From the IMG/VR virus record IMGVR_UViG_3300025085_002722, positions 32,001 through 96,000 of that record: a stretch of 64,000 nucleotides of DNA; one strand, written 5' to 3'. Below the pieces are notes generated by a model, which saw nothing but the letters and a program-made list of their open reading frames with translations, had not been told where the DNA came from and did no database searches. Below are positions 6,285-48,300 of this stretch, in pieces (the first letter of the stretch is position 1; each line of letters starts with the position of its first letter). Origin of the DNA: a virus. The translations under genes and the position numbers were made by a program.

Positions 6285-6311
6285 AACCCCCTTTTTAAGG
6301 GGGTTTTTTTT
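6285..6311 (+). terminator. Rho-independent terminator
   Basis: AACCCCCTT-TTT-AAGGGGGTT followed by a T run. Confidence 0.9.
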
Positions 6312-6382
6312 GGCTATTAAAATAGTGCCTGAATATACTGAGAAAATGATAAATATGCTTATAACAGTGACAGGAGACACAT

Positions 6383-7029: not shown

Positions 7030-7030
7030 A

Positions 7031-7309
7031 ATGAGAATAGTTGAAGTAGAAGGAGTAATGGAGGCCAAAATGGTCTGGGCCAAGCGAGGCAGTAAAATTG
7101 TTCGTAAGGTCAGATGTACTAGTGGCCCACGCAAAGGCAGAATGGTGTCTAATGCAGGTCAATGCTCAAAACCTATCAACTTAAAAAAACGCATGACGCT
7201 CAAAAAGACCAGAGCAAAAATGGGTAGAAGAATGGCAAGGAGAGCCGCAAGAACAAAAAGGCGTAATCCAGTTAGCAAAAGAGTTGCAAGGCTTAATAGA
7301 AGAAGATGA
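7031..7309 (+). CDS. Small very basic (Arg/Lys-rich) protein
   Basis: MRIVEVEGVME followed by a K/R-rich body; overlaps next start (ATGA). Confidence 0.75.
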   Translation: MRIVEVEGVMEAKMVWAKRGSKIVRKVRCTSGPRKGRMVSNAGQCSKPINLKKRMTLKKTRAKMGRRMARRAARTKRRNPVSKRVARLNRRR

Positions 7310-10300
7310 AACTAGCAGACTTATACGAATATAACAAAGGAATACAAGACCCAAATTCCAACGCAAAACAGTCAAATAAAAATGACGACGAAATGGAATT
7401 GGAGCCATTCACACCTGACCAAGAAAAGGAAGTAGCAAAAGGTTTTAAGGCACTAGGAGCCAAGTTAGGTCAGCCTATACAAAATCCTAAAATGGCCGCC
7501 AAAGGCATAAACAAGGCCATACAAGGCGACAAGCCAACACCACAGCAATTACAATCAAAATTACCAATTGATGTACAATTAACAAAAGCAATGCAGACTC
7601 CTGCATTGAGAAATCAATTAGCAAACATACTTAAAAAAGCAAACCAAATAGACATCGACGAAAACACCCTTGCTAAAAAAATATTAAAAAAATTAACAGG
7701 TAAAAAAGCACTAACAAAATTCAAAAGAAGATCTAAACTACTCAAAGAAGCAGATCCTACATTATGCGAAATAAATTTTAATAAAAAAGAAATAGTAAAA
7801 GGTTCGTTGGAACTGCCTATAAAATGTGGATTTGAAGCAGAAACATTTTTCTATTCAGTAGAAAGCAGTGGCGCCAGTGACGATGTAGACAACATGAGTA
7901 TCAGTGATATCGAATACGAATACGGTGATATGCCAGATAGTGCATATGAAGATTATCAGTCCTGGTTGTACACTAAAGGGCAAGATGAATACTTAGATGA
8001 CTTAATTACAGACAAAGTAAACGAAGTCAAAGAAGATGAAGACTGGTTAAACGAGTTTATTGACAGTAGCGATGGCCCAAGTTCAGAAGCAATAGAACAA
8101 TACAAAAAAGATTTTGAAGACGCCGATCCCAAAGAATATGAAAACCGTGAAGAAGATGGTTGGGAGTATATGAATTGGGTCAGAGAATATGTTGAAGAAG
8201 AATATGAAAACGAATATTTGATATGGTTAGAGGATGCTGTCAGAGAAGACAGCGACCTAGATCAAGAAGCCAAAGAACTTGCTGAAGGTGATTACAGCAT
8301 GGATGATTGGGTAAACGATACCTATGATTACATGAGTAGTTTCCTCGATGATTATGGTTTTGATTACAGTAGGTCAGGCGGTGATGTTGAAGGTGTAGCA
8401 GATGAATTAAATAACTGGATTAAAGATAATAGTAAATTTACAGACTATCCAGATTCAGGGGAATACGGCGAAACAAATACTACAACTGCTTGGTCAGTTG
8501 AGACTGACAGCAGTATAGATCCGGACGAAGGTGCCGGCGCAGAACTTATTTCTCCTGTATTTGATAGTCCAAGAGATATGCTTGAAGAAATGAAAAGTTT
8601 ATTTGACTGGAGCGAAACAAACTTTGGCACAAACAATTCCACAGGACTACATGTAACAATGAGTTGGCATGGTAAAAATCCTGATACAGTACAAGATGAA
8701 GACGGCGAATTTTGGGGAGATGAACCATCAGGACCAAACAAATTAAAAATGGCATTACTGTTAGGTGATGAATATTTACTTGCAGAATTTGGCAGGTTAA
8801 AAAACAGTTACACAAAAAGTCAATACAATAATGTATTAAAACATGCAGAAGGCATGAAACGTGGTGAGGCAAAAAGTTTTAAAGAATTTGAAAAGATACT
8901 CACAAAAGGCATAGACACTGGCAAGTTTAACAGTATACATTTTAAAAACGAAAAAGACAGAATAGCAGGAACCAATCTTGTAGAGTTTAGAATTGCCGGC
9001 GGTGCAAATTACAATGAAATGTATGAAAAAGTTGTTAAAGCAGTTATTAGATACGCAACTATCATGCAAGCCGGATATGAAAAAGACGCATATAAAAGAG
9101 ATTATGTTAATGCTGTGTTCAGGCTTTTGCGTAAATCACAAGAAATAGACCCTAAAAGATTAAAAGCATTATCAGTTGTTAATCACGAAGTTATAGACTC
9201 TGCTAAAAATATAGTAGGTAAAAAAGACTACTTTGATGTTATTAATTTTTTAAGCAATAGTGTTGAAAGTTTGAGATATTATGAAGAATTAAGCAAACCA
9301 GGTGCTGACAAAGAATGGTTAAAAAGTGTTAAAGAATATGAAAAAAATACTGGTACAAAATTAGATATAAAAGAAGTAGAAGAACGCGAACCAATAGAAG
9401 GTTATTTACAGCCAGACAGAATCAGACCAAGCAAAGGTGCGGCAAGCGAATTAAAAAAAGCACAAGAAAAATTTGCATCGGCTGTTACTATAATAGCAAG
9501 AGATATAGCAGACGGTAATAACAGAAGTACTGTTTCAGCAAAAGATATAGGCGCATTTAGAAAATATGCAAATTTAGTTAAGTTAGATGATAAAGAATTA
9601 GAAAAAATTGTCATGACAAAAATGGATGATTTTAACTGGGGTGATCCTGATAAAAGCAATATTAACAGATTGAAAAAAGGTATAGATACTTTATTCAAAA
9701 GAAATATAATTTCAGAACCAGAATATCTTACACCGCAAGATGCTGACAGGATTGCTACAGGTATGTGGCAATTTTATCAAACAGACGATGTAAAAGACAA
9801 TGCTAAAACTGACAAACTTGCAGAATTATTCATGCAATTAAATCCAAAAAATGATAAACCTAATGTTGTAGATATATTAAAAGATTTAATGCATGAAAGA
9901 CAACAAAATGGATTTAGTGCTAAACTAAAAGGCTCAGGTTGGAATACCGGTATTACTTTGATAGGCACAGGAAAAATTACCACACCAGGAGCATCTGCAG
10001 AATTATTAAAATTCTTAGAACCATATAGTGGTTACAAACACCCAACCGGCAAACAGCATCATATTAATATCAAAAGCGATGACCCTTATGCATCTGTGTT
10101 TGACATGAGACTTCGACAACGTTTAAGAGAAAGATTAGTACATATAAGAGAGTTAGAAACAGACGATCCAGAAAAAGCAACTAAACTACAGCAACAATTA
10201 GTCAAAATTGGACTTGAATTATTAGAAGGCCTAAAGCCTAGACCAGATCTTTGGGATGAAGATGATGACGGATTCGCCCAAATTAGACGGGGTAATGATG

Positions 10301-13300
10301 GAACAGCAGATTTGGCTTCACATAGTGATTTAGAACGTTGGAATAATACTATGGACAGGATTGTAAAATTAGAAAGTGAACTAACATCAAGCGATAAAAC
10401 ATATAATTTTTTTAGTGCGTATGACGACTATATTTTAGGTGTTATACATTTAGATAGATATTATTCTTGGAAAGAAAACAACGGACCTACGCAACATGCT
10501 GTTTTGAAAAACTTACACAAAGAAAGATTTGCATCAATTAAAAAATTCTTATCAGAATTTGATAAAGTATTCCGCAAAGAAGGCTTCTTGGATTTAAAAG
10601 CAGAAATACAAGCAAAAAATACATTAGATAGAAGAAATAGAGACTTTGAAAAGAATGTCAGAGATAATTCAAAAGGAAAACTAAACATACCAAGTCACAG
10701 TTGGATGTACATAGACAAAGACTTTTTTGATACAATAACAGATAAAAGTTATGGTGATAGAGAAGCATATTTAGATAATCATATAGACAACTTTAACAAA
10801 AATGTAAACAATACCAAAGTGTATGTTATACCTTCAAGTCACTGGAGTGATGCCGAAGATGCCACAAACGGTTTAGAACTTATAGATACATTTGAAAAAA
10901 ACAAAAACTATTATCACACTTGGAGAAAGAAAAATTATAAACGAGTAATCAACAAATTCCAGAACACATATGGGTATAGTTGGAAAAATTTAACCGACAA
11001 CGAAAAGTTTTATTCAGGCAACGGAGACTTGTATGCAAAACTCAAAGACATTGGTATCGAAATCACTCACAAAGGCGACAGTAGAAAAGGTGCACCTGGT
11101 CAAACAGATTTACTGTCAGACGAATTAACTAAGAATCCTACCAGCGGTGAACCACTAAACAGAAGTAGTGCAACAAGTTGGTCATTGAACAACGACGAAG
11201 CAAGCCAAAAACAATTTGATGCATTTGATTGGGAACAGTACCCAGCAAAAATGAAAGATATTGTTGCTAAGGTTATGAAGCAAGATCGATATGGTAGTTT
11301 TAAAGTAGCATTAGAAGATGTACTTAGAAAAGTTTTAGATGGTAAAGTGTCAATAGACAAAGAAGATTTAGGAAGACCTATAGACAGAATGGCGAATGCG
11401 GCAGGCATTGAAACAGACGATGGTGGTTCCTCAAACGGTATAGCAAGTAAAACAAATTGGAAAACTTTATCAGACTACTTAAAGATTGAAAGAGGTGTAA
11501 ATGATCAAGGTCCAAACTTACTTTTAAAAGTTTATAATCAATTTGATGGCAATCACGAATGGAGACCTCAAGAAACCGACGAGGATGGTAGAGACGTAAT
11601 TGGATTAAAAAGATGGGCCGCCGCAGTTAAAGAAGCAGAAAAATATATCAGAGACAACTACAATGTAAGTGGAGGAAACTACTTTAGAAAGAATGTAGAT
11701 GGCAGTGACGGCGACAATGTAAGCAGTATGTATAGTAATAATACAATATCAACATCACCAGAAAATGAGTTTGATTCAGATTACGACAAAGCCAGAGCAG
11801 ACCATCCAGGCTTTGATAGAATGATGAATCGTGGTATGCAAAATTACTTAGCACGTGGCGAAGTAAATGACCTAGTAGGATTTTTAAACAATCCAGACAA
11901 TGATAATGTTTTCAAATCGCAGGTTTTAAATACTATAACGAATCGAGGTGATATGGAAAACGGTCCTTTTGCTACTTTCCAAGATGCATTAGCAGTTACT
12001 CGTAGACAAGGCAATGAAAGTGTATTTGATAAATTTGATGCATTGCCTTTACAAGAACAGTTGCGTATTATAAATCAATCAAATGTATTAGAAAAATTTA
12101 CTGAAAGAAAATTATCTAAAGATGAAAAAGAAGACAAAGAAAAATACGTCAAAGGCATGAAGAAAAACAAAAAAGGTTTCAAAAAAAGATATGGAGATGA
12201 CGCAGAAGCAGTAATGTATGCAACCGCAACTAAGATGGCAAAGGAAAATAAAATAAATACTAATATGAAAAATGTTTTTGAACAGTTTGAAAATTTATCA
12301 CTAGAAAAGCAATTAGAAATATTGCACAGTCCTGTAGTAGAAGGATTTTTCAGTGACGTAGATGTTGACATGAGAGAGTTGTCATACAAAGCATTTGCTA
12401 AAAAATATCCAGAATACGCACATTTACATCCTGGTGCAGAAGAGTTATCTACAAAGCCAATCAAAATGAAAAAAGCACCTTACAATAAAGAACAGCATAT
12501 CAAGAACACATTTGCTAAATTTAAAAGAGACCACGGCGAAGCAAAAGCAAAAATAATGTTGGATAAAATGATGCAGAGAGGATACTTTGATAAGGACATG
12601 TCAGAAAGTTTACTGGGCATTGATATTTTAACCAGAACTAAAAAACTCACAGAAAATATGCCTAACAATAATAAATTAGCAATACTAAGAAGATTACTGT
12701 CAAGAACTTTTCCTGTAGGTGACTTAGATATGCAATTCCAAGCATATTTAGCCTTGCCAATACCAAAAATGATGACAGCATTTAGTCAATTAAAAAGCAT
12801 AAAAGGACCAGATGCATGTGCAAGGGATATACTTAGGCATTATGCAAAAAATAGATTACCAGATGCAGAAGTAAAGCAACTTGATCTCAATGAAAGTTAT
12901 ATTAGAGAAGATGCAGATGAAGACAGATTAAACAGTATAATGACTGCATTAGAAAATAATCCAAGTTTTGCAAAACGAGTTTACAAAATGTTAAAACTTG
13001 ATAAAGAATCAGCAGACCATTTGGACATCGAAGATAGACTTAAAAATAATGACACCGGTAAGGAAAACGATCATAGAATTAACAAGAATATCATGAGACA
13101 ATTAGTTACCTCTTTAGAACAACTAGATCATGATTTTGATGAATTAAATTCATTTGTTGAAACTTACGGACACACAGATTATGTAAACACAGAATTATTA
13201 AACAAGTCTGGTGTATTTAAAATTTCAGATATGCTGGTTGGTAGCGACACAGTATCTAAAGAATTTATAGATGATCTTTATGAAAAATTATTTGACTTTA

Positions 13301-13974
13301 GAATTAATATTTCTGGATCAAACAGAGGGCCAGGTGAACTTGGATTATGTTTACTGTCACCTAATGTAGAACTTGCTTCGGTAGGTGATATCAAAGTTAA
13401 TGGCGAAGAAATAGAAGTTAAAGGTGAGGTATCGTCAGGTGGCGGTAGAATGGTTAACGGTATTGACGACTTTAAGTTTAGTGGATTAGCACAGGTCAAA
13501 TCACAACTAGTACCATTTTATGAAAAGCATGATATTCCAGAAGAATTAAGAATTTACAATTTAAAAGGTGCAGTTGGCGGAGGCCGTAATCAGGGTCAGG
13601 CTCATATACTAGATCAAGCACAACAATTAGAACAAGTAAAACAAGGTGTAGGTGCTGAATTTTTAAAATTAATTGTTAGCACATATCAATTTGTTATTGA
13701 CTCAGAAGAAGAAGCAGAATTAACAGGTTCATTTATGAATATGGATAAGACTAGGTTCTTAACACTTGTAGGATTAATGTCATTTAAAAATTATGCATAT
13801 ATGTTAAACAAAAAAGGATTCAATAGATTAATATTTTTAAATTGGAGATATGATAAAGTAGTAAATTGTACAACAGAAGAATTTCCAAAATACAGTGAGC
13901 ATTTAGCATTTACAAGTTTAGATATGGCAGACAGTCAAAATGGTCCAGCAGTACAGGTATCAGTGTTAAAATGA
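7306..13974 (+). CDS. Giant multidomain protein with a putative amidoligase (COOH-NH2 ligase type 2) domain and a C-terminal PD-(D/E)xK-like domain
   Basis: GFEAE...DSSI...GAELISP...TNNSTGLHV...VEFRIAGG amidoligase motifs; C-terminal GPGE...[13 protein letters not shown]. Confidence 0.7.
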
Positions 13975-15791
13975 GATTATACGAAGTAACTAAACCTGGA
14001 CAATGCCCAAGAACAAAAGCAACCGAATGCAGTTGCGAAAGGCTAAGGCAATTATCAGAAGCAGAAAAGCCTATAAAAGCAGTTGCAGTACTAGAACACG
14101 GCGATGCTAAAGGCATAATTAATTTTGTACAAAAGCCAGGTAAAGCAACAATTATTAGCGGTACTATTAGCGGTTTAACAGAAGGGTTACATGGATTTCA
14201 CATACACGAATTTGGTGATCTCAGTGATGGGTGCGATAGTGCAGGTGGTCATTATAATCCGCATGGTGTCGATCACGGCGATGTAGATAATGGACATATA
14301 GGCGACTTAGGAAATATAGAAGCCAACAGCAAAGGTGTAGCAGAATTTAAAATAAAATCCAAAACAATTCAATTACAAGGTGCTACAAGCATAGTTGGTA
14401 GAGCAGTTGTAGTACACGAAGACGAGGACGATTTAGGTAAAGGTGGTGACGAAGAAAGTTTAAAAACAGGCAACGCAGGTAACAGAGCAGGCTGTGGTGT
14501 AATAACATTATCTGAATTAACAGAATCAGCAATAGCAGATTTAGATAAAAATATAAGCGACAAACATTTCAAAAGAAATGAAATGCCGCAAGTTAAAGAA
14601 CCAGATTTAATAGATAATGAAATACCTTACAAAAAAGGCAAAATAAGTATAGTAAATATCAAACCAGTTCAAACAGATAGAGTACCAGGATTAGCACAAA
14701 AAGTTGCAAAAAACTTTCACGGCAAAGACAAGCCTTTTATACTAGACAAAAACAATTACTTAGTTAACGGACATCATAGATATGATGCGGCTAGATTACT
14801 GGGCATAGAAAAAGTAGATGCAATTAAAGTAGATGTGCCAATTGAATTATTAATGAAAAAATTTAGCCATACAACTAGTGATGCAATGGTCGAACATTTA
14901 AGTGACAAAGCATCGACACCAGAGATACATAACAAAGCATTACAAATGGCCAAAGATGCATACAGAAAGTCTAATGAGCAAATATCATTTACTAAATTAT
15001 ATGATAAAGCATTAGAAATTTTAGAACCTGCAAAAGTAGACGAAAACTTTGCAGACGGTAAGAAGAAAGGTAAAAGTCGTCCAGGCAGAGTTAAAAAAGC
15101 AGGAGCCAGTTGTAAAGGTTCTGTAACAAGTTTAAGAGCAAAGGCTAAAAAGTATAGTGGTGAACGTGGTAAAATGTATCACTGGTGTGCTAACATGAAA
15201 GGTGGCAAGAAAAAGAAAAATGAATCATTATTAGTATCAACATTTGATAATGAGTTTGTGAAAAAAGCAAAAGAATTATACAACGCAGGCCAACAAGGTC
15301 AATTGATTAGACACATATATAAATTTTCTAAAGAAAATTCAGAAAGAATACATCAAAAACCAGAACTGAAAAAGATGCTACAAGATATTTTTTATGAAGT
15401 ATCAGATAATTTTCAAGACGAGGATCAAATAGAAGAACTGCTATTCATAATAGATGATACATTGAGCAACCCAGTCAATGAATCAGCATTTGAAAATTTA
15501 AAATTACCAACTTGGATATCACATACCAGTTTAGAAAAATTATTTGCACAAGAGTACGGTCCTAGATACGGTGACTATGTTGCACATATGGATCTAGACA
15601 GTGACGACGACTTGGCAATGAATGCCAGTGGCATGGGCGATATGGCTTTTGAAATGGTTAAAGCAAATGACATTAAAGTTATGCAAAAATTCTTAGCACA
15701 AATGCCTGTGCAGTTCACAGTAGATGACCTTAGATTAGATAAAGGTATTCAAGTTTGGCATCTAGTTCAACAAAACAAAACGGTACATTAA
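13971..15791 (+). CDS. sodC: Cu/Zn superoxide dismutase fused to a ParB/Srx-like domain and further modules
   Basis: [27 protein letters not shown] and [13 protein letters not shown] motifs; LVNGHHRY ParB-like motif. Confidence 0.88.
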
Positions 15792-28525: not shown

Positions 28526-30226
28526 ATGGCTGTTAAATCATATATCGTATCGTTTGAACACGAACACATAGATGGTGATTCTGTTTCTTTTGACCAGTCT
28601 GCAACAGAAACTGCACTTACGGGTGCAGGTGCAACAATAGATAGTAGTTTTGATCATGCTAAGTCTGGTATGTATAAAATTAGTATCGACGAGACTAACA
28701 TAAGTAGCATTTCATCACTAACAGGTTACGTTGCATCAGAGAATGTAACGGACCAAGCAGATGCCACACTATTAATTAGTGAAGCAACAAGCGAATGGCA
28801 CAAACAAAGAATAGTAACTAGAAACTTACCACTAAGAACAACTTTTGACCCTGTATATACAGGAAATAACTCAGTAGTATATCTAATGGACAGTGGTGTT
28901 GACCAAGGTCACCCAGAGTTCTCAGGAAAAAGTTTTGAACCTATATATTCAGTAATGGAATCACCCGGTGGATTTGCTGAATTTATAGAAGACGGCAACG
29001 CCGGTACAGATTTTGATACATCAGACAAACACGGTCATGGAACAGCAATGGCTAGTTTAATCAATGGTGCTACATACGGTGTAGCCGGAGATGCCACAAT
29101 AGGAATTGTTAAAATTTCCGACCCTTCAGTAGATGGCGGTGCTATCAAATTAGAAAATGTACTAAATGCCTTTAAAGCAATAAGATTAGCAGACATTAAC
29201 TTTCTTGATGAGGGTGGGTCAACTTATACTAATGCACCAACTGTATGCATGGCATGGAGTTTTCCAAAATCACAAGTACTAGACAGATATGTTTCCTTAA
29301 TGCAAAATCGCGAAGGCTTCTTAATGGTTGCCGCGGCAGGTAACAACGGTGGAGATGTTGATAATTATTCACCAGCAGGCATTAACGAAATTTTAACAGT
29401 AGGCGCAAGTGACAGTTCAGATAACGTACCTTCATTCTCAAATGATGCAGGTGCTATCGTAGAACAAGGTACTGGACTACAAACAAACGGTGGTGAAGAA
29501 GTCGATGTATTTGCTCCAGGTGTTGCAGTAAACTATGCAGACATCAGCAATAGATTAAATGACAGCGATTACACAGGCGTTACAGGCGATGATCTAAAAA
29601 CTACAGGTAGTGGAACAAGTATATCTTGTGCCATAGTTGCAGGTATGGGTGCTATGTCTTCTGAAAGATTTGGAAGTAGTAGAGCAACAGGAAATGCACT
29701 CAAAGAACTAGTTATTGAACAATCATTAACTGGACTACTTTTCCAAGATCCAGGATTATACAGCAGTACACCAAATAACATCGTGTTTGCAGAAAACGAA
29801 TATTATGCAACTGTATGGAATACAGCCGCTGGTAACTTAGGAGACTTTTTACTTACAGGTGCTGGCGATATTGATATTAGTTTAGATGTTGCTAATACTG
29901 TAACAGAAATTACTAGTTCAGAATTTGCCGCAATGCCACCAGCATTAGAATTAAATGGTAATGCGTCAACCGGTTGGAATATTACAGCAAATACCAGTGT
30001 AACAGGTACTATGAGTAATACAACAATATATAACTTTATTCTAACTGCAACTAAAAGCGATAACACAAAATATAACAGACACTTTTCAGTAAGTTTATTT
30101 GGTGGTAGCGAAATTACAGAAGACGAAAGAACTGCAGGTAATGAAACATACTTTGTAAACGACGGCGGAACATTAAGTGAAGTTGTTTATGGCTCAGGTC
30201 AGTATGCAGGTAGACAGTTAAAATAA
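28526..30226 (+). CDS. Subtilisin-like S8 serine peptidase
   Basis: Catalytic triad motifs MDSGV, HGHGT and SGTS; AAAGN oxyanion motif. Confidence 0.93.
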   Translation: MAVKSYIVSFEHEHIDGDSVSFDQSATETALTGAGATIDSSFDHAKSGMYKISIDETNISSISSLTGYVASENVTDQADATLLISEATSEWHKQRIVTRNLPLRTTFDPVYTGNNSVVYLMDSGVDQGHPEFSGKSFEPIYSVMESPGGFAEFIEDGNAGTDFDTSDKHGHGTAMASLINGATYGVAGDATIGIVKISDPSVDGGAIKLENVLNAFKAIRLADINFLDEGGSTYTNAPTVCMAWSFPKSQVLDRYVSLMQNREGFLMVAAAGNNGGDVDNYSPAGINEILTVGASDSSDNVPSFSNDAGAIVEQGTGLQTNGGEEVDVFAPGVAVNYADISNRLNDSDYTGVTGDDLKTTGSGTSISCAIVAGMGAMSSERFGSSRATGNALKELVIEQSLTGLLFQDPGLYSSTPNNIVFAENEYYATVWNTAAGNLGDFLLTGAGDIDISLDVANTVTEITSSEFAAMPPALELNGNASTGWNITANTSVTGTMSNTTIYNFILTATKSDNTKYNRHFSVSLFGGSEITEDERTAGNETYFVNDGGTLSEVVYGSGQYAGRQLK

Positions 30227-30245
30227 AATATTTTTTATAAAAAAG

Positions 30246-30270
30246 TAGGCTGGGAACAGCCTATTTTTTT
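30246..30270 (+). terminator. Rho-independent terminator
   Basis: TAGGCTG-GGAA-CAGCCTA followed by T7. Confidence 0.88.
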
Positions 30271-30293
30271 GACCGCACAAAATAAATACTACT

Positions 30294-30770
30294 GTGGAAA
30301 CAACCAATATATCATTTGAAACTATTTGTCATGTGTGGCAAAAACATTTATGGCAAAATAGAGTAAGTCCAATTGAAACTCATAGTGCAATGACTTGGCC
30401 ATTTGACGGCAATCCATTAGAATACGATATGGATATTTTTAATTATACACCAACTTTTTTTGCTATCTTTCTAAGGCAAGAGATAGTAGGAGTAAACAGC
30501 GGACACAGAACAAAGGATAATATCTATAGAAGCAGAGGTATATGGGTACGACCCGAATACAGAAAAAGAGGTATATCGACAATGTTATTTGATGCTACAG
30601 AAAAACAAGCAATCAAAGAAGGTTGCAATATGATATGGAGCATACCTCGTAAAAGTGCCTTACCGGCATATACTAAATTTGGCTTTGAAACTGTAGGTAA
30701 CTATTTTGACGAAGGCATGGAGTTTGGGCCTAACATATATGTAACCAAGGAACTAAATGTATCCAACTAA
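30294..30770 (+). CDS. GNAT acetyltransferase
   Basis: WVRPEYRKRGIS acetyl-CoA motif and AYTKFGF. Confidence 0.88.
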   Translation: METTNISFETICHVWQKHLWQNRVSPIETHSAMTWPFDGNPLEYDMDIFNYTPTFFAIFLRQEIVGVNSGHRTKDNIYRSRGIWVRPEYRKRGISTMLFDATEKQAIKEGCNMIWSIPRKSALPAYTKFGFETVGNYFDEGMEFGPNIYVTKELNVSN

Positions 30771-31779
30771 AGTACATGGACCTAGACCAGAGGTACTGTC
30801 GAAAGATATCACTATACAATGGAGTATGGGCAATAGTTGTAACTTTGAATGTGAATACTGCCCCGCACAATTACATGATGGCAGTTTAGGTTGGCACGAT
30901 ACAAGTAAGTATATAGACATTATAGAAAAAATATGTAAACACTATCAAGAACAAGACAAAGTAGTAAACTTTGAATTTATTGGCGGCGAAGTTACAGTTA
31001 TACCTGGCTTTATAGAAATATTAGAAAAAGTAAAAGAGTACAACGGGCACAATATAATTTTTACAAATGGTAGCAGAACAGTTAATTGGTGGAGCAAAGC
31101 AAAACATTTAATTGATGATTTAGTGATCAGTTACCACCCACAATCAATGGACGAAGATTCGCTGATAGAAATCGCTGAAGAAATAAAAGACTCGGTGTAT
31201 ACAAGTTATCAACTAGCAGGTGTAAAAGATTACTTACCAAGACTAGAACTGTTAGCAGAGAGGCTTAGAACAGTATATAAGCATAGTACAGTACAGGACT
31301 ACTGGGGTGTTAATATTGCAATCAAAACCATGTATAAAAAACTATTAGGTCCTGGTGCTAAACAAGATACATTTTATGACTATAGTGGCAATGATTGGCG
31401 TATATTAAATTTACCCACATGGAAAGAAAATCCAGACACACCTCCGCCACCGCCGCCAGATCCAAATGCTCCGCCTCCACCAGAGCCACATCCAAGTAGA
31501 TTTTTATTCACATACCAGACACCTGAAGAAACAAACTACTACAATGCAGATCAAATTATGGATCAAGGACTAAACAAATTTCAGGGCATGATGTGTCATA
31601 TAGGCGAGCGAGGTTTTAATATCGACATGCGTGGCAATATTGTTAGCAGTTGGTGTGGTGCTAAAACATATGGTAATGTGTTTGAATCTGATTTTGAATT
31701 GCCGACACCCGAAGGCGTAGTTTGTCCACATGAGCATTGTAATAATCCCAAAGATATTCAAATACTCAAAACTGCCTAA
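30757..31779 (+). CDS. Radical SAM protein with C-terminal Cys-rich (twitch/SPASM-like) domain
   Basis: CNFECEYC, GGE, TNG; C-terminal C...WC...CPHEHC. Confidence 0.9.
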   Translation: MYPTKVHGPRPEVLSKDITIQWSMGNSCNFECEYCPAQLHDGSLGWHDTSKYIDIIEKICKHYQEQDKVVNFEFIGGEVTVIPGFIEILEKVKEYNGHNIIFTNGSRTVNWWSKAKHLIDDLVISYHPQSMDEDSLIEIAEEIKDSVYTSYQLAGVKDYLPRLELLAERLRTVYKHSTVQDYWGVNIAIKTMYKKLLGPGAKQDTFYDYSGNDWRILNLPTWKENPDTPPPPPPDPNAPPPPEPHPSRFLFTYQTPEETNYYNADQIMDQGLNKFQGMMCHIGERGFNIDMRGNIVSSWCGAKTYGNVFESDFELPTPEGVVCPHEHCNNPKDIQILKTA

Positions 31780-39201: not shown

Positions 39202-41319
39202 ATGGACCGTTCAAATATCATAGTAGTATACCCAGGTAGATTCCAACCTTTTCACAAAGGACACAAATCAGTGTTCGATCATCTTAAAAAAGATTGGCCC
39301 AATGTGTATATTGCTACTACAGATAAAGTTCAACCAGGCAAATCACCATTTAATTTCCAAGATAAATTAAATTTTATGCAACTGTTAGGCATTGATAAAA
39401 GCGATGTATTACAAGTAAGAAATACCTATAATGGGCAAGAGTATATAGACCAATTTGGAAAGAAATATACGGCTAGCGACACAGGGTTAATTATGGTCGT
39501 AAGCGAAAAAGATATGGTTGATGACCCAAGATTTAACTTCCCCAATACGGGAATGTCTATTAAAAAGGACGGTAATCCTGCATATTTACAAAAATTTACA
39601 CACGAAGATGATATGAAAAGTATGGCTGAGCATGGTTATATAATGACTGCTCCTATCTTTCCATTTAAAATAGCAGGACACGATTTAGATAGTGCTAGTC
39701 AAATTAGAGAACTAATGAAAGGAGACGAGGAACTAGCAAAACAGGTTTTTGTGGACTTATATGATAAATACAACGAAGACCTATTTAAACTTATACGAGA
39801 GAAACTTATGATAACTGAACAGGAAATATTAGACTTAAATTACATGCGTAAAATGGCAGGTTTACAAGAAGTAGACGTAGAAGATGATGACTATGCTGTA
39901 AATCCAGGCTACAAAGAATTAGCAATGTTTGACCAATTAGGTAAAATTATTGACAGTGACGAAATGTCCAAAGATGGCGATGACATTAAAAATCCTAAAG
40001 CAACTGTAAAAACAGATGACGGTTCAGAAATGGAAGTAAGTGTAGGTGAAGCAAAAGCACTAAGAAAAATGGTAAACATGTTAGGCTCAAATAGAGGAGC
40101 AGAAGATAAATCACCTAGAGAAAAGTTTTTAGATGCAATTCAAAAAGAAGAAGGTCTTAGAAATATGATCGAATTTGCTAATTCAAAAGGTTTAGTAGAA
40201 GAAGGTGATGTAGAAGAAGGTAACGCATTTGGTAAAGCGGCTAGAAACACTAAGAAAGGTGATAAATTTTCAGTAGGTGGCAAAACATTTACAAAAGAAG
40301 AATTACAAGATTTAGACTTAAATGATATTAGATACGAATATGGTGTAAAACCAGTATCAGAAGGCGGTAATGCATTTGATATAGCAATGACAGATGCAGA
40401 AGATGTTATTATGACATGCCAGGATCAAGAACAATGTTTAAAAGATTTAGAAGCATTAATTAAAGATGGTGCAGAAGATTGGGACGACAAATATGCAAAC
40501 GAAGTTGTGCAAGACTACATCACATTAGTAGTTGACAAAGGCATAGAAGGTGCCAAAGAATATGTAGAACAACAAAATAGAGAACCAGAAGGTGCACCAT
40601 TAGAAAGCAAAGGTGCAAAACCAGACTACATTGACATAGACGGCGATGGCGACAAAGAAGAGCCAATGAAAAAAGCAGTCCAAGACAAAAAGAAGAAAGA
40701 AGAAAGTTTCGATGTTAGTGCAGAACAAAGTCGTGAGGAAGAAGCATACGAAGAACTAATGACTGCATTACAAACTGGCGGTGAAGAAGCATACGCAAAA
40801 GCATGTGGTTTATCAATGAAAGAACTAGATGATGAAATGAGTGAGATTGGCAGAGACCTAAACTTACACATGGATGACGACAGAGATGAAATTATTCAAA
40901 GACATGCTGAAGATACTGTAGACAATGCAGATTGGAAAGACTATGGTGGAATGGATCATGACATGGAAGAAGATTTAGAAAGAATGCGTGAATTAGCAGG
41001 CATTGAAGAAATTGCTGAAGAGTGGAACTGGGATAAAGGTAGTTATGATGAAAAAGCAGGCTATGATGCTAACTTTAGTCTGTGGTCACAAGAAGTACAA
41101 AAAGAAAGAAGTCAATATGGCGACAAACCATTTAGCAGTCATGAGGAAATGCATCAAGAGTTTAAGAAAATAATGAAAGATAGAGGTATCAATGTATTTG
41201 CTCAACAACGGTTAAGTCAAAAAATGAAGGCTCAAAAAAGTCAAGCAGAAATAGACAAGTACAGAGGCATTAAGGTGAAGGACTTTGAGAGAAGAAGATC
41301 TGAAATGCAAACGGATTAA
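39202..41319 (+). CDS. HxGH nucleotidyltransferase (cytidylyltransferase-like) fused to a long acidic modular tail
   Basis: PGRFQPFHKGH and SASQIR motifs at the N-terminus. Confidence 0.8.
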   Translation: MDRSNIIVVYPGRFQPFHKGHKSVFDHLKKDWPNVYIATTDKVQPGKSPFNFQDKLNFMQLLGIDKSDVLQVRNTYNGQEYIDQFGKKYTASDTGLIMVVSEKDMVDDPRFNFPNTGMSIKKDGNPAYLQKFTHEDDMKSMAEHGYIMTAPIFPFKIAGHDLDSASQIRELMKGDEELAKQVFVDLYDKYNEDLFKLIREKLMITEQEILDLNYMRKMAGLQEVDVEDDDYAVNPGYKELAMFDQLGKIIDSDEMSKDGDDIKNPKATVKTDDGSEMEVSVGEAKALRKMVNMLGSNRGAEDKSPREKFLDAIQKEEGLRNMIEFANSKGLVEEGDVEEGNAFGKAARNTKKGDKFSVGGKTFTKEELQDLDLNDIRYEYGVKPVSEGGNAFDIAMTDAEDVIMTCQDQEQCLKDLEALIKDGAEDWDDKYANEVVQDYITLVVDKGIEGAKEYVEQQNREPEGAPLESKGAKPDYIDIDGDGDKEEPMKKAVQDKKKKEESFDVSAEQSREEEAYEELMTALQTGGEEAYAKACGLSMKELDDEMSEIGRDLNLHMDDDRDEIIQRHAEDTVDNADWKDYGGMDHDMEEDLERMRELAGIEEIAEEWNWDKGSYDEKAGYDANFSLWSQEVQKERSQYGDKPFSSHEEMHQEFKKIMKDRGINVFAQQRLSQKMKAQKSQAEIDKYRGIKVKDFERRRSEMQTD

Positions 41320-42438: not shown

Positions 42439-42660
42439 ATGAAAGTTGAAATATATAGCAAACCACAATGTCCATACTGTGATATGGCAAAAGCATTAGC
42501 AGAACAAAAAGGTCACGACTTAACAGTTAAAATGTTAGACGTTGACTTTGACAGGGAAGCATTAATGGAAGCATTTCCAGGAGCAAGAACATTCCCACAA
42601 ATCATTGTAGACGGTGATAAAATTGGTGGGTATCAAGAATACAAAAAATTAGTAGGCTAA
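42439..42660 (+). CDS. Glutaredoxin
   Basis: CPYC, TFPQI and IGG motifs. Confidence 0.95.
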   Translation: MKVEIYSKPQCPYCDMAKALAEQKGHDLTVKMLDVDFDREALMEAFPGARTFPQIIVDGDKIGGYQEYKKLVG

Positions 42661-43199
42661 CATTGAGTCGCTACGATATGTATTCTATCCTCATTGCTGA
42701 AATTTACTGCAGAATGTAAATAATTCGTACGCATCAAGTACGCATTTCCTGTTTCTAAATTATAGTGTTTAATCGAAATATCAGTGCCTGTATCGGTTGC
42801 TACAGGCTTATCCGTATAGAACATTAAAAAGTTTTGATCGTTTGTTATAACAGGTATATGTAGGCGTAAGACGTGCTCTATGCCGTCATGATGTACACTA
42901 TAGCAAGTACGTCTTGCTTTATTCATTATACGCCATCTACAGTAATTAGGTGCTAAACTTTGTATTAATTCGCCTATATAACGGTCTTTTATGCTGTTAT
43001 TAACTACAGTAAAGTCGCTTTCTTTATGCTGTAAATCTGCTATTTTACCAATGCTACAATCCCAATCATCATTGCCTGTAATACTAGTTAGACTGATTTG
43101 TTGGTTAGGCCACAGCGGAGTTAAGCCAAGTATATACTCAACATCTTCTAAAAGTTGTTTTTGATCTATTTGTAATGATAGTTTGTTTATATATTCCAT
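42657..43199 (-). CDS. Asp/Asn beta-hydroxylase-like 2OG-Fe(II) oxygenase
   Basis: HHD, RLHIP, HSAVN, RIHIV motifs. Confidence 0.75.
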   Translation of the reverse strand: MEYINKLSLQIDQKQLLEDVEYILGLTPLWPNQQISLTSITGNDDWDCSIGKIADLQHKESDFTVVNNSIKDRYIGELIQSLAPNYCRWRIMNKARRTCYSVHHDGIEHVLRLHIPVITNDQNFLMFYTDKPVATDTGTDISIKHYNLETGNAYLMRTNYLHSAVNFSNEDRIHIVATQC

Positions 43200-43822
43200 G
43201 GTACTAACTTAAATCGCTCTTTTGGTAAGCCTAAGTATTTAGTAGTCCATTCGCTTTGTCCAACAAAATCTAAGTGTGCCCATTCTGATTTTTTAGAAAT
43301 TTTTTCTTGAGCAAAGTTTTTCCAATCAGTGTTTATTAATAATTCTTCTATTACAGATTTCTTTTCTTCTACTTCATCTATACTGTTACTATCCCACTCA
43401 TAGTGAAACAGTTCCATAGTATTATATCTACTATCGTCTACATAATCTAAACTGATGTCTATACCCCACTTAGGTTTAAGTTGAGTCATTTTGTGTATAA
43501 GATGATTACCTTCTGCCCAATGCCCTAACTGTTCTAGAGCATATCCGTGATAACCTTTGCGTTCGAATAAGTAAGAATGATTAATATGAGGACCACTAGT
43601 TGTGTGTGATTCGAACCAAGGTTTTGCTATTGATCTTCTGTAACGTACAAAGTCTGCTTCGCCCATATTCTTTTTAGCATACTCTTGCTCAAGTGGACAT
43701 AAGTCATATCCGCTTTGATCAAATAAATGTAACATATCAGCATTAGGACAATGCATTTGTTCTATGGCTGTACCCCAAGTACCTTGTGAATTAAATGTAT
43801 TTTTGCTTTTACTAATGTGCAT
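43187..43822 (-). CDS. Hypothetical phage protein
   Basis: 211 aa ORF overlapping both neighbours. Confidence 0.75.
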   Translation of the reverse strand: MHISKSKNTFNSQGTWGTAIEQMHCPNADMLHLFDQSGYDLCPLEQEYAKKNMGEADFVRYRRSIAKPWFESHTTSGPHINHSYLFERKGYHGYALEQLGHWAEGNHLIHKMTQLKPKWGIDISLDYVDDSRYNTMELFHYEWDSNSIDEVEEKKSVIEELLINTDWKNFAQEKISKKSEWAHLDFVGQSEWTTKYLGLPKERFKLVPWNI

Positions 43823-44351
43823 ACCAATCCAAAATTAAATGTATTCTATCTTCATTTGAATTATTATAAACCGAATGCATATCCTGATTATCAATTTCAA
43901 ATATTTCTCCTGATTTCATATAGATAGTCTCAGAACCTACTGTAAATTCAACTTTATTATTAGTAACTATAGGTATATGTATTCTACTATTTATAGAAAA
44001 AGAATCACCGGTATCAATGTGTGGATATATAAAACATTGTGCTGGTAGAAGAGCAAACATAACCCTTATAGGGTGACCAGTTTTATAATTATTAATTTTT
44101 TTAAATAACTCTTTAAAAAATACTTCATCCACATATTTGTCCCAATATTCTGTTTTAGGTGCACTTTGAGATGTGTATTCAAACTTGATAGATTCTAAAG
44201 ACCACATCAATGGAATTACTTTTGTACTACTGTGAACTGCATAGTACGAATGTCTGATTATTGAATAAGGATTATCCCAATCATTGGAATTAGATAATTT
44301 ATTAGTAATAGATTCTATATTGATATCATCAATATAAACAAATGGTTTCAT
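43812..44351 (-). CDS. Asp/Asn beta-hydroxylase-like 2OG-Fe(II) oxygenase
   Basis: PHID, RIHIP, HSVYN, RIHLILD motifs. Confidence 0.85.
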   Translation of the reverse strand: MKPFVYIDDINIESITNKLSNSNDWDNPYSIIRHSYYAVHSSTKVIPLMWSLESIKFEYTSQSAPKTEYWDKYVDEVFFKELFKKINNYKTGHPIRVMFALLPAQCFIYPHIDTGDSFSINSRIHIPIVTNNKVEFTVGSETIYMKSGEIFEIDNQDMHSVYNNSNEDRIHLILDWYAH

Positions 44352-46619
44352 TTACCACTTACGGCAAGACCAGTAACGTGCCTTTGTCTTTGGTCCTGGG
44401 TTATCACAGTTGTGTCTTGCTCTAAAACTCTTTCTGGCTTTAGGGTTTGACTTTCTAATTTTCATTGTTTTACCTTTGGCACTACTTCCACCGTGTCCAA
44501 AGTTTACTTTTTTAACATTTCCTGTTTTAGGATCTTTCACATATACTTTAAACTTCTTAACATCGCCTTGCATAGGTTTGTTTAGTTTAACTGTACGCCC
44601 TTGGTATTCTGCTTCTTCTAAGCCTGCTAATTTTTTTAATTCTGCTAATTGCTTTTCTTCTTCAACAATGATTTCTTCTGCTAAATTATCCCAACCAACT
44701 AAAATATTTTCACCAACAACATGTAATACTGGTACAACAATACCTTCGCCTTCTGCTGTTTCGATCATTAGTTCGTCGCCTACTTGAATGCTTTCTTCGT
44801 TTTTGGCTTTTTTCTTTTCAGGCTTATCGTGTTTATCAATTGTTTTAGTGCCAAATGTATCTTCTATTCTTCCTTCGTCTTTTTTCATTGGGTGTCCTGG
44901 ATTATATCCTTTAGTCATCATGTGTTGTTGTGCGTAATCTTTATATGCAGTATTAATAGTAATATCGCTACCATAATTATGTGCTAACATCACATCGTAA
45001 TAATCTTTATATACTAGTGGAGCACCGTTCTCATCAAATGGTTCACCATTAATTACTGTATATCTAATTTCTTTACCTGTCATAGGACTTTTGATTTTTT
45101 CAACTTTTAATTGTTCATTCATTTCTGCACCTTCTTTCTTGACACAATTATTAACTGTTTTACCAAACATCTTCTTTGTGCCTTTCTTTTCATAACCTTT
45201 CCAGCAACGTTGTCCTTCATTAGTTAAACCTGCGGCTTTCATGCCTTTGGCAACCAAACTGGCTCTTTGTGCTCTGCCCATGTGCGGATAATCTATAGCC
45301 ATTTGTTGCATAGCCATTCTTGGATCATCCATATTCATAACCATATTACGAATCTGTTTGATTACTTCTTCGTCACCTGGATAGTTGTCTTTTGCTTGTT
45401 GTCTATCTACATTACGTTTGTCACTTTTAATAATTTCTGCCCAACTGCATTCATCATTTTTGAAAGTCATTTCACCTTCGTCACAACCGTAATTGCCCCA
45501 ACCGTCACAACTGTCTTCTTCTTCCTCGTAGTCTGCATCAGCATATCCACTTCCAGCACAATTAGGACATATACCGTCCTTGACATATTGTGCCTCAGTG
45601 CGATCACATTGTTCTAATGCATCTTGCATTTCTTGATATGCCTGCTTTCTGTCCTCTTCGTCATAATAACGATCAGGTTCACCAATCATACCATCATTTA
45701 AATCTACATCTTCGTTATTGACTACTTTTAATTGTGACCTTCTATAATCTTTTAAAAATTTATCTACTTGTTCGTCTGATAGTCTTGGAAAGTATTCTCT
45801 AAAAACTTGTTCTAATTTATCTATGCCATATGCACTTATAATTTGTTTAATAATTTGATCAGCATCTTTATCTGAAACTTCGTTAATTCCAACTTTCTTT
45901 AATTCTATTTTTTTAGATGGATGTTTCTTTTTCATCTTGTCTTCCATCTCACCTGCGTCTACATAATCCTTAAAACGTACCTGTGCATCTTTACCGTCAA
46001 TGTGTATTGCCCATCTACCTTCTTCCTCAGATTCGGCATGCATAGCCGCCATGTGTTTTTTATACTTTGCACTACCTTTTTTATGTGGTGATTTACCTTC
46101 TTCTAAATCTGAAGTGTCTAATTGTGCCATAACATCATCTATAACACTACTGCTATCTATAACATCTAATACACCGCCACTAGCAAAGTCGCCTATACGT
46201 TGTCCACCGTGTTCCATATCTGGATCAACACAATCTTCAACATCTAATCTTTCTAATTCAGTATAAACAGCATTTTCCAAAGCATCTATGCTTTCAAATT
46301 CGTCTTCACTATCTAAAAACATATCTACTAGTTTTTCAATACATGCATCACGAATAATACTTCTTTCTTCGCCTTCGTTGACATCTTCTCTTCTGTATTT
46401 AGTAACGCCTTTGCCCTGATAACTATCAGGTACTAAACCATATTTTTTCATTTCTGGTTCAATATATTCGTCCTGTACATCTGTGCCAGCATAAGCAAAC
46501 TTTTCTTTGGGTTGGCCTGTATCTTTTGCCCACTTTTCCGCGGCATTATGATAAGCATAGTAACTATCATTACTACCTTCTTGAACTTTTGTTGCTTCTA
46601 TAATGGTTCGTAGTTTCAT
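44352..46619 (-). CDS. Large modular protein with a basic C-terminal domain (DUF6321-like)
   Basis: MKLRTIIE start; C-terminal RKSFRARHNC...KARYWSCRKW. Confidence 0.75.
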   Translation of the reverse strand: MKLRTIIEATKVQEGSNDSYYAYHNAAEKWAKDTGQPKEKFAYAGTDVQDEYIEPEMKKYGLVPDSYQGKGVTKYRREDVNEGEERSIIRDACIEKLVDMFLDSEDEFESIDALENAVYTELERLDVEDCVDPDMEHGGQRIGDFASGGVLDVIDSSSVIDDVMAQLDTSDLEEGKSPHKKGSAKYKKHMAAMHAESEEEGRWAIHIDGKDAQVRFKDYVDAGEMEDKMKKKHPSKKIELKKVGINEVSDKDADQIIKQIISAYGIDKLEQVFREYFPRLSDEQVDKFLKDYRRSQLKVVNNEDVDLNDGMIGEPDRYYDEEDRKQAYQEMQDALEQCDRTEAQYVKDGICPNCAGSGYADADYEEEEDSCDGWGNYGCDEGEMTFKNDECSWAEIIKSDKRNVDRQQAKDNYPGDEEVIKQIRNMVMNMDDPRMAMQQMAIDYPHMGRAQRASLVAKGMKAAGLTNEGQRCWKGYEKKGTKKMFGKTVNNCVKKEGAEMNEQLKVEKIKSPMTGKEIRYTVINGEPFDENGAPLVYKDYYDVMLAHNYGSDITINTAYKDYAQQHMMTKGYNPGHPMKKDEGRIEDTFGTKTIDKHDKPEKKKAKNEESIQVGDELMIETAEGEGIVVPVLHVVGENILVGWDNLAEEIIVEEEKQLAELKKLAGLEEAEYQGRTVKLNKPMQGDVKKFKVYVKDPKTGNVKKVNFGHGGSSAKGKTMKIRKSNPKARKSFRARHNCDNPGPKTKARYWSCRKW

Positions 46620-46624
46620 ACTAC

Positions 46625-47119
46625 TTATTTATCATCTTTTAGCCACATGGCAAGTGAATACCTTTCTCCTGATGTTAGCATCTTAACTCCATGTACAGAA
46701 TCTGTATTTGAAAAAATCACAGCATCACCTTTATTCATTGGAATTACTTTGTTATTATAAACAAAATCTCCACCAGTGTAATCAGAATTTAATTGTATGA
46801 TAATTGTTTCTTCTGTAGGGTCTACATGAGGAACACAAAACTCGCCCTCTTGATATCTAATTACATACATTCTGCTATCCATAGCAGATACTGGCTTTTT
46901 TAAAGATTCACTAATTTTTGATAGGATTGTGTGTGATGCATTAAGTTCGATCCTTGTAGGTAATAATTCTAATCTATACCACGTATCTAACGGTACTTCT
47001 TCTTTTTCTCTATCTATTGCTGGTGCAGTATTAATATCTAATACCGGTAATTGACTAATAAAGTTGTCACATTCAATAGGAGTAAGAAACTGTTTAATAA
47101 ATTTATACGGAGTAGGCAT
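46625..47119 (-). CDS. Prolyl-hydroxylase-like 2OG-Fe(II) oxygenase
   Basis: PHVD, YTGG, HGV and RYSL motifs. Confidence 0.85.
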   Translation of the reverse strand: MPTPYKFIKQFLTPIECDNFISQLPVLDINTAPAIDREKEEVPLDTWYRLELLPTRIELNASHTILSKISESLKKPVSAMDSRMYVIRYQEGEFCVPHVDPTEETIIIQLNSDYTGGDFVYNNKVIPMNKGDAVIFSNTDSVHGVKMLTSGERYSLAMWLKDDK

Positions 47120-47138
47120 AAATTTATTTATAGATATT

Positions 47139-47805: not shown

Positions 47806-48108
47806 TTACTTTCCTTTTGTATTGCTGACGTTCTTTGCTTTGCCCTTTCTATTTTTATTAGGGTCATTACGTCTCTTTTTTGATACAGCGGCACCAATTG
47901 CCTTTTTGCCACCTTTTGCTCTTAAACTTGCGGCTTTTGATTTGCTTAAACACTTAGGCTTACCTTCGCCTTTTTTAGCATCTCCGCATTTGCCTATTCT
48001 TTCGCCTTTGGTGTTGTATCTATCCCAACCGCCACCACCGGCTCCGCCTTTCTTGCCTTTGCCAAACCAGGCTCTTAAGTCTTCTGTGAGAATTTCGTTA
48101 ATTAACAT
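47806..48108 (-). CDS. Basic protein (MLINEILTE-DLRAWFG...)
   Basis: Start reassigned to 48108; capsid-targeting-like N-terminus. Confidence 0.75.
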   Translation of the reverse strand: MLINEILTEDLRAWFGKGKKGGAGGGGWDRYNTKGERIGKCGDAKKGEGKPKCLSKSKAASLRAKGGKKAIGAAVSKKRRNDPNKNRKGKAKNVSNTKGK

Positions 48109-48109
48109 C

Positions 48110-48300
48110 TTACTTCTTTTTCTTCTTAGATTTGTTACCCCAATTTTTAGCACCTACTTTACGGCACTTAACTAAGGCTCCACTTGCGTATGCACTAGGC
48201 CACACTTTATATCTGGATTTTACTTTGTGATAGCAGGCGTCTTTTTCGCCTGCCGCTTCGTCGAATTGTTCTTCTGTAATATACCTAGAGTCGCTTATCT
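48110..48300 (-). CDS. Start-less coding frame (…DACYHKVKSRYKVWPSAYASGALVKCRK…), probable -1 extension of the upstream gene
   Basis: No start codon after the in-frame TAG; joins 48295..49050 through an A9 run. Confidence 0.7.

Follow-up and report, generated by a model that had tools for sequence, protein, structure and literature searches.

We analyzed the open reading frame (ORF) at positions 44352 to 46619, on the minus strand, of a 64,000-nucleotide window of viral DNA that corresponds to bases 32001-96000 of the linear IMG/VR record IMGVR_UViG_3300025085_002722 (130,385 bp; CheckV completeness 25%). This is a real ORF that starts with ATG and encodes a protein of 755 amino acids (aa), hereafter P0001, which divides into about 11 modules (Table 1). 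The modules are shuffled among the relatives of P0001 and meet at joints that follow a Glu residue, usually with a hydrophobic residue shortly before it; the junction motif is depleted within most modules, the N-termini look like leaders, and in cultured phages the fusion of the C-terminal module J goes together with a gp21-type prohead protease (Peptidase S77). From these features we infer packaging, cleavage and a role for the separate pieces, and we lean, with slightly better than even confidence, towards P0001 being a head-packaged modular polyprotein that is cut by the prohead protease.

P0001 is a string of modules bounded by Glu sites

An earlier reading of the same DNA by a model, hereafter the original prediction, had described P0001 as acidic segments alternating with basic modules that start or end at hydrophobic-x-Glu (h-x-E) or Asn-Glu sites, and as a description this was confirmed: the ORF, the motifs, the example modules and the alternation of charge were all found. 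Thus, the quoted motifs lie at residues 6-8 (IIE), 12-14 (VQE), 80-82 (VNE), 172-174 and 667-669 (LEE), 245-247 (INE), 466-468 (TNE) and 500-502 (MNE), and the three example modules at residues 175-196 (C), 469-496 (F) and 670-755 (J), with the net charges of the acidic (B, E and I) and basic (C, F and J) modules given in Table 1. The original prediction implied that the acidic segments are mere spacers, which was not borne out: they are conserved domains with many invariant columns. P0001 carries 14 [LIVM]-x-E sites, which is about the number predicted from its composition, and it is their placement alone that is unusual. Seven lie within the N-terminal tag or mark the end of a module (residues 8, 14, 82, 174, 247, 502 and 669) and six fall inside module I, so that the interiors of the other modules hold only one, when about nine would be expected from shuffled sequences; module B has none, compared to 3.0 expected.

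Similar modules had also been proposed for other genes of the window. The quoted strings were found at 13971, 7306 and 39202, but homology to the modules of P0001 was not: a BLASTP search of P0001 against all 161 ORFs of the contig gave no significant match (best E value 0.013), and the modules of these genes are therefore similar in kind only. Profile searches of the 755-aa protein with Pfam and NCBIfam gave no match, nor did a PDB sequence search with module J and with the whole protein, and PHROGs matched pieces of P0001 only (phrog_7595 at residues 668-755, phrog_4359 at 455-516, and phrog_9737). In the protein atlas, we found unnamed viral clusters only, plus DUF5754 on 21% of one cluster, and module E had no usable match.

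Modules are shuffled, gained and lost among relatives

Relatives of P0001 are numerous, with at least 3219 at an E value ≤1e-3 among 8000 scored candidates of a large protein database. We dissected 119 distinct relatives among those listed, using single-module profiles, and recovered module A in 18, B in 89, C in 74, D in 20, D2 in 29, E in 112, F in 19, G in 16, H in 69, I in 56 and J in 118 of them. That the modules are shuffled, as the original prediction had it, was evident from 38 different module orders among the 119 relatives, some of them permuted (E-B-...-J versus A-B-C-...-E-...-J). The commonest orders, E-B-H-J (23 relatives), E-B-C-J (16) and E-B-J (12), are permuted relative to P0001, whose own order was shared with only 5 of the 119.

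Gain and loss of whole cassettes could be followed among relatives whose flanks show 84-86% identity, where the insertions fall exactly at LEE174/G175 (a slash marks the joint here and below). Cassette X (GITTKHSYDP...NNPFFIE/) is inserted in P0003, P0004 and P0009, cassette Y (NLDYLEKSKY...RDPRF[KR]E/) in P0005 and P0006, and both together in P0008, P0013 and P0014; the cassettes themselves end in FIE/ or F[KR]E/.

Joints share a Glu motif that is depleted inside most modules

To count junctions, we anchored the start of each module by a profile hidden Markov model and took each distinct upstream 7-mer once; P1 and P3 denote the first and third residues before the joint. All 36 of the 36 different contexts upstream of module B read [LIVMF]-x-E/G at the junction. 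A P1 Glu precedes module C in 26 of 27 contexts (P3 hydrophobic in 14), H in 18 of 18 (P3 hydrophobic in 8), J among the relatives of P0001 in 29 of 29 (P3 hydrophobic in 20) and G in 5 of 6, while h-x-E occurs as background at 2.2% of positions in the relatives' proteins. At the chosen, profile-anchored starts of D, D2, E and I, the motif was not seen. We then turned to diverse J proteins and obtained junctions for 148 of the best 150 (two had no match to the start pattern), with 109 distinct upstream 10-mers. The residue before A-E-Y is Glu in 122 of these 148, and P3 is Leu in 76, Met in 25, Ile in 19, Val in 15 and Phe in 2 (137 in total). The E/AEY joint was likewise found in 79 of 80 IMG/VR loci, the remaining locus being cut at its end.

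The consensus of the T4 prohead protease is L/I-x-E, and the junction motif fits the cut sites in the T4 record, namely FLTE65/AEIGG in gp23 and FIAE/A in IPII and IPIII, in line with what had been proposed. P3 is L, M, I, V or F in 137 of 148 J junctions and 36 of 36 B junctions, unlike the small P3 residue of the phiKZ/SPN3US type. The expectation that homology boundaries fall at Glu sites also held, as seen from the profile-anchored junctions, the cassette gain and loss at LEE174/G175 and the free form of J, which starts at A670. Of 547 BLAST breakpoints, 36.7% lie within 3 residues of an [LIVM]xE site, compared to 12.3% for random positions (P = 0.0035). Since breakpoints also cluster at Glu residues without a hydrophobic P3 (at 196-203, 302-305, 463-468 and 581), the joints are better described as following a Glu, in most cases with P3 or P4 hydrophobic, than as strictly h-x-E.

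Inside most modules, the motif is rarer than expected across the family. We counted 40 internal [LIVM]xE sites in module E compared to 202 expected, 1 compared to 15.7 in D2, 0 compared to 5.9 in G and 110 compared to 177 in B, counts that are not phylogenetically independent.

N-termini resemble T4 capsid-targeting leaders

P0001 starts with MKLRTIIE/ATKVQE/G and thus has a leader-like stretch of about 10 residues ending in hydrophobic-x-Glu. This leader-like start is a feature that P0001 has in common with the T4-type, gp21-processed class; it is a resemblance to T4 leaders only and does not amount to membership of that class. A start of the pattern M-[KR]-x(3-5)-hydrophobic-x-E was found in 89 of the 119 relatives versus 4 of the 161 contig ORFs, and among J proteins it heads 71 of the 120 short ones and 46 of the 150 diverse ones. 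Examples among the relatives are MKTFQEYLKE/A, MKSLKDYLAE/S and MKINEILNE/GKSPHKKG, the last from short proteins in which module C stands directly behind the tag; the corresponding leaders in the T4 record are MKTYQEFIAE/A (IPII and IPIII) and MAKINELLRE/S (gp24). One T4-like record (G003; locus L106, 15423-17774, minus strand) encodes a 783-aa J protein 2.2 kb upstream of the genes for the large terminase, portal, protease and major capsid protein, on the same strand. This protein has seven [VIL]-N-E sites and an internal MKLTSILNE/A, which suggests a retained leader and the fusion of formerly separate tagged genes.

Leader-like starts were also seen elsewhere in the window, in a gene block on the plus strand at 2428-15791 that includes a DUF6267 gene at 3267-4535. 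The tags there are MKINEVILRE (at an internal Met of the ORF at 2428), MRIDEVIIQE (5311-5892), MRIVEVE/G (7031-7309) and MKLADLYE (the 2222-aa protein at 7306-13974, plus strand). The 606-aa product of 13971-15791 (plus strand) starts with MRLYEV and combines a Cu/Zn superoxide dismutase, a weakly ParB-like stretch and a basic module. In a 705-aa protein at 39202-41319 (plus strand), acidic and basic modules come after an N-terminal cytidylyltransferase-like domain, and there is no leader-like start.

Fusion of module J goes together with the S77 protease

Module J belongs to a very large family. Residues 668-755 match phrog_7595 over its full length (profile positions 6-96 of 96; E value 1.5e-13), with 77% identity to the phrog_7595 protein of Aegir, and the J family comprises at least 3679 clusters (50% identity) at an E value ≤1e-3 and 521 at ≤1e-30. 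In all of the best 150 J clusters except P0341 and P0343, J lies at the end of the protein, whose length ranges from 105 to 972 aa. Its nearly constant place at the end of the chain and the conservation of its last residues raise the speculative idea that J is a piece of cargo or a DNA anchor in need of a free C-terminus. An AlphaFold model of the module was poor, with a mean predicted local distance difference test score (pLDDT) of 59.3 and a predicted template-modeling score (pTM) of 0.33. We also considered DUF5754 as the identity of stand-alone J, and rejected it because the matches were below threshold (E values 0.009-0.2).

All four cultured J-carrying phages with S77 (Pelagibacter phage HTVC008M, with the J fusion AGE60465, C48C1, Flavobacterium phage immuto and Methylophilales phage Melnitz) have J fused behind a leader, at the joints LEE/AEF, LTE/AEY, LDE/GEY or MME/SEY. 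In contrast, an S77 profile search gave no match in 11 other cultured J-carrying viruses (Aegir, Kolga, HTVC026P, HTVC111P, HTVC202P, HTVC106P, CRP-901, CRP-3, CRP-6 and two Nitrosopumilaceae spindle-shaped viruses), and in 10 of these J is a free-standing protein of 79-93 aa that starts with MA[KTIV]. Because stand-alone J starts M-A-K-Y, the free form begins exactly at A670 of P0001. In Roseobacter phage CRP-6, gp55 (L100 835-1524) carries J N-terminal to a Peptidase_S78_2 (XkdF) domain, a putative phage protease domain (E value 7e-18), a fusion that places J alongside head-assembly machinery, as judged from the domain match; the record annotates gp55 as a hypothetical protein. Among related viruses, S77 was found in 3 of 4 large viral records as well as in PA5oct and Phosso; it was found in 2 of 34 smaller IMG/VR fragments, which are 6-55% complete and hence uninformative.

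A protein carrying module F is detected in cyanophage virions

Module F matches a "structural protein" of the Synechococcus phages S-P4 (AYR01841) and S-E7, which the depositors place in cluster T4-GC0119. The S-P4 protein is 79.7% identical over its full length to its orthologue SSM1_115 of phage S-SM1, annotated "T4-LIKE GC: 119", and SSM1_115 contains KCWKGYEKKGTQTLFGKKYNRCVKKE, of which 19 of 26 residues are identical to residues 471-496 of P0001 (pairwise E value 1e-9). No other part of P0001 aligned to SSM1_115, and the phrog_727 profile gave no match to P0001. In the entry for T4-GC119 in Table S8 of Sullivan et al. 2010 (PMC3037559, supplement 1), the cluster is scored "Y" with 13 counts in the first proteome column, which we took to be S-SM1 from the paper's text. 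The same entry gives a gene length of 276-2985 nt across 16 cyanophages, and the entry for the cytidylyltransferase T4-GC190 shows 25 counts in the same virion proteome column (Table S8, PMC3037559).

A 115-aa ORF of the window (47806-48153, minus strand) matches phrog_727, the T4-GC119-type basic module, and contains ...DLRAWFGKGKKGG...KPKCLSKSKAASL. Its true start is likely an internal Met, giving the leader-like MLINEILTE/D. It lies 1.2 kb upstream of the P0001 gene on the same strand, and its relatives are found near J proteins in 6 of 80 loci.

Proposed processing and competing explanations

In the scheme we propose, a short N-terminal leader like the capsid-targeting leaders of T4 would bring the protein into the prohead core, where a gp21-type (Peptidase S77) protease would cut after Glu at the joints, mostly at [LIVM]-x-E followed by Gly or Ala. 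Small folded modules would thereby be freed, both basic (C, F and J) and acidic (B, E and I), and would stay with the DNA or leave the head; that the basic ones act as DNA-binding or anti-defence peptides is conjecture. The joints would double as in-frame seams for cassette exchange, and J and other small modules would be the same proteins that are produced separately, each from its own gene, in smaller viruses. Since the joints are uniform and in frame, cassettes would be easily gained, lost and reordered. The interpretation offered by the original prediction, of shuffled cassettes that are co-packaged and then released on head maturation, is partly supported, namely in the shuffling, the boundaries at Glu and the fit to T4 cut sites.

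Several observations weigh against such a polyprotein, and they are given here together with the explanations that compete with it. Within the 130-kb record, we found no genes for a portal, major capsid protein or prohead protease, and a search of this contig with the PF03420 (Peptidase S77) profile gave 0 matches; because the contig is an estimated 25% of the genome, the missing S77 is uninformative rather than negative. SSM1_115 is a different string protein that has only the 26-residue module in common with P0001, and Table S8, in its entries for these clusters, is silent on cutting. The P0001 gene sits outside any head-gene block. The T4 late-promoter word TATAAATA is present at 47125-47132 (minus strand), 5 bases upstream of the ATG of the 2-oxoglutarate (2OG) oxygenase gene that precedes the P0001 gene, and this word is not enriched in the window (9 found versus 10.8 expected). 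P0001 as a whole is acidic, with a net charge of about -29 summed over the modules, unlike the T4 internal proteins, and module I is enriched rather than depleted in internal [LIVM]xE sites across the family (148 versus 97 expected).

Other such observations would be accommodated by an uncut multi-domain protein, that is, beads on flexible Glu-rich linkers that work as a whole with no protease, the E/G or E/A joints being kept either as the N-terminal residues of the cassettes themselves or as uniform linkers for in-frame recombination. The conserved E/G could indeed simply belong to each cassette. Glu-rich linkers attract breakpoints anyway, and random Glu sets explain most of the coincidence between BLAST breakpoints and [LIVM]xE sites (36.7% versus 24.1%; P = 0.11, range 0.11-0.19, not significant), so that the predicted agreement between the two stands when compared with random positions and loses significance when compared with random Glu residues. 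Several joints lack a hydrophobic P3 and are not h-x-E (TNE468, NNE303, KDE582, KNE608, KKE496, HAE196 and EEE200), and P1 is Asp in 26 of the 148 diverse J junctions. The two LEE joints have 13 of 15 nt in common, a possible recombination microhomology; a long frozen DNA linker in the gene was rejected, as the joints match at only these 13 positions. In the Atlas, the model of full-length P0001 scores poorly (pLDDT 0.49, pTM 0.19), which also fits an uncut string, though it is to be expected of any string of small domains. What an uncut protein leaves unexplained is the hydrophobic P3 across 109 upstream contexts of module J, the depletion of the motif in E, D2 and G, the T4-like capsid-targeting leaders of the relatives, and the finding of J fused behind a leader and h-x-E in 4 of 4 S77 phages versus 0 of 11 viruses without S77. 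We regard this explanation as unlikely, though a serious contender.

Cutting might instead take place outside the capsid, in the cell or after secretion, by a host enzyme or by the S8 subtilase encoded at 28526-30226, whose gene lies beside GNAT and radical-SAM genes in the window. In podophages, stand-alone J is encoded among early or DNA-metabolism genes, a setting that points to an intracellular role and that also bears against packaging in the head. However, T4-type prohead proteases as a rule cut after Glu where P3 is hydrophobic, and such a preference is not known for subtilases. Moreover, the link with J fusion concerns S77 and not S8, and the N-terminal tags are like T4 capsid-targeting leaders, not secretion signals. 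We consider this origin of the pieces very improbable.

A further alternative is that P0001 is chiefly a substrate of flanking oxygenases, which would be encoded in one operon with it and would hydroxylate its small Cys-containing modules, with the Glu joints incidental. The P0001 gene sits among 2OG-Fe(II)/Asp-Asn hydroxylase genes, another point that does not favor a head protein, and its same-strand neighbors, at gaps of a few bases, are 46625-47119 (2OG-FeII_Oxy_3), 43812-44351 and 42657-43199 (Asp_Arg_Hydrox). These hydroxylase-like enzymes might modify the string protein. The downstream pair, a 211-aa ORF and a hydroxylase gene, stands beside a J protein in L022, L033 and L005, but such direct synteny is confined to these 3 of 80 related loci, and about 10 of 80 have a hydroxylase-type gene anywhere within 6 kb. 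Module strings also occur in thousands of other contexts, and hydroxylation would be compatible with proteolysis. A role chiefly as an oxygenase substrate thus appears highly improbable.

Comparison with known systems

In T4, the protease takes 65 residues off gp23, shortens the internal proteins and breaks down the core, as outlined in PMC9958956. In the accounts available for the giant phages, the proteases of T4, phiKZ and SPN3US all cleave after Glu (PMC5694885), and 14 cleavage sites have been mapped in 9 proteins of SPN3US (PMC10052503; PMC5694885). Among these systems, P0001 can be compared with the T4 internal proteins IPI, IPII, IPIII and Alt, which also have a short leader ending in h-x-E (MKTYQEFIAE/A in T4, MKLRTIIE/A in P0001 and MKTFQEYLKE/A in relatives), are cut after Glu by the protease, and are non-essential, variable cargo; cutting of P0001 is predicted, and S77 is present among viruses with its relatives. 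In contrast, T4, as described in these sources, removes one leader from a single-domain protein, whereas P0001 would be cut at up to about ten internal joints to yield a row of shuffled modules, and as a whole is acidic.

The head and ejection proteins of the giant phages phiKZ, 201phi2-1 and SPN3US are cut at several Glu sites, according to the same accounts, as is proposed for P0001. There, however, the extra cuts shred long propeptides and leave one mature C-terminal product, the motif is S/A/G-x-E with a small P3 (Ala, Ser or Gly) and not L, I, V or M as in the P0001 family, the protease is S80 rather than S77, and cassette shuffling is not described. The T4-GC119/phrog_727 proteins (SSM1_115 of S-SM1 and AYR01841 of S-P4) are Lys-rich strings of small modules that include module F, vary in length and are detected in virions, but they have only module F in common with P0001, are basic throughout and are without J. 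Finally, the phrog_7595 proteins of pelagiphages, roseophages and Nitrosopumilaceae spindle-shaped viruses (e.g., gp13 of Aegir and gp56 of Kolga) correspond to J over its full length, but are free proteins of 79-93 aa with no leader and no Glu joint, in viruses without S77.

Polyproteins of this kind in marine phages did not turn up in our literature search, which had little coverage of subscription journals. Should the cuts prove real, the loading by leaders and trimming by protease known from T4 would be extended in ocean phages to the modular delivery of a changeable protein set. We tentatively raise a broader and rather doubtful idea, namely a combinatorial capsid-cargo system in marine T4-like and jumbo phages, in which free early proteins would be strung behind a leader and the protease site would serve as both a cutting code and a universal in-frame joint. 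This may be a protease-delimited form of exon shuffling, with modules that are free in podophages and even in archaeal viruses. Given the size of the families involved, the relatives of P0001 and the J clusters counted above, real cuts would provide a function and a testable processing code for a large block of marine viral "dark matter" and would account for the extreme range of lengths in cyanophage cluster T4-GC119. With the junction rule, one could then derive mature virion peptides from sequence, and the same rule could guide the design of phage-capsid cargo.

Features of P0001, its source and its neighborhood

The coordinates of P0001 and its modules are collected in Table 1. In addition, module E has 6 Cys, including a CxxCxGxG knuckle.

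Table 1. Modules of P0001 and their positions in the window
Feature	Position	Strand	Remarks
Whole ORF, modular string protein P0001, 755 aa	44352..46619	-	at least 3219 relatives at E value ≤1e-3
N-terminal tag, residues 1-14, MKLRTIIE/ATKVQE/G	46578..46619	-	h-x-E after residues 8 and 14; like T4 capsid-targeting leaders
Module A, residues 15-82, ends VNE82/G	46374..46577	-	BLAST breakpoints cluster at residue 79
Module B, residues 83-174, GEERSII..., net charge -24, ends LEE174/G	46098..46373	-	profile anchoring
Module C, residues 175-196, GKSPHKKGSAKYKKHMAAMHAE, net charge +5	46032..46097	-	place varies among relatives
Residues 197-303, short acidic spacer, then D and D2, INE247/V between D and D2	45711..46031	-	boundaries less well defined
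Module E, residues 304-468, net charge -21, ends GLTNE468/G	45216..45710	-	many invariant columns; phrog_4359 match at 455-516
Module F, residues 469-496, GQRCWKGYEKKGTKKMFGKTVNNCVKKE, net charge +7, 2 Cys	45132..45215	-	likeness to SSM1_115
Residues 497-608, spacer with MNE502/Q, module G, KDE582/G, module H (GRIEDTFGT...)	44796..45131	-	single-module profiles
Module I, residues 609-669, net charge -13, 6 internal [LIVM]xE, ends GLEE669/A	44613..44795	-	site count and charge
Module J, residues 670-755, AEYQGRTVKLNKP...YWSCRKW, net charge +21	44355..44612	-	phrog_7595; widespread stand-alone small viral protein

The record carries T4-type genes for a tail-sheath stabilizer, a 953-aa sheath, tube, neck and large terminase, and also for a gp32-like single-stranded DNA-binding protein, UvsX and a UvsW-like helicase. 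A megablast search with 10 kb around the ORF found no cultured relative; a comparison of large terminases places the jumbo phages PA5oct (58.5% identity) and Phosso (50.7%) closest among cultured phages. The T4-type gene set and these terminase relatives together indicate that the source is a marine jumbo myophage from the T4 superfamily that has not been cultured. Outside the window, the same contig carries a bS21-like ribosomal protein gene and an Hsp20 gene (L003 1015-1428 and 8356-8796).

Around the P0001 gene, three 2OG-Fe(II)/Asp-Asn beta-hydroxylase-like genes and the 211-aa ORF occupy 42657-44351 and 46625-47119 (minus strand). Other copies of TATAAATA lie just before the starts at 35189 and 42439. 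Further away, at 28526-31779 (plus strand), the S8 subtilase gene (weak mycosin/PatA-like matches) adjoins genes for a GNAT acetyltransferase and a radical-SAM protein (weak viperin-like match), a trio that could modify peptides or nucleotides.

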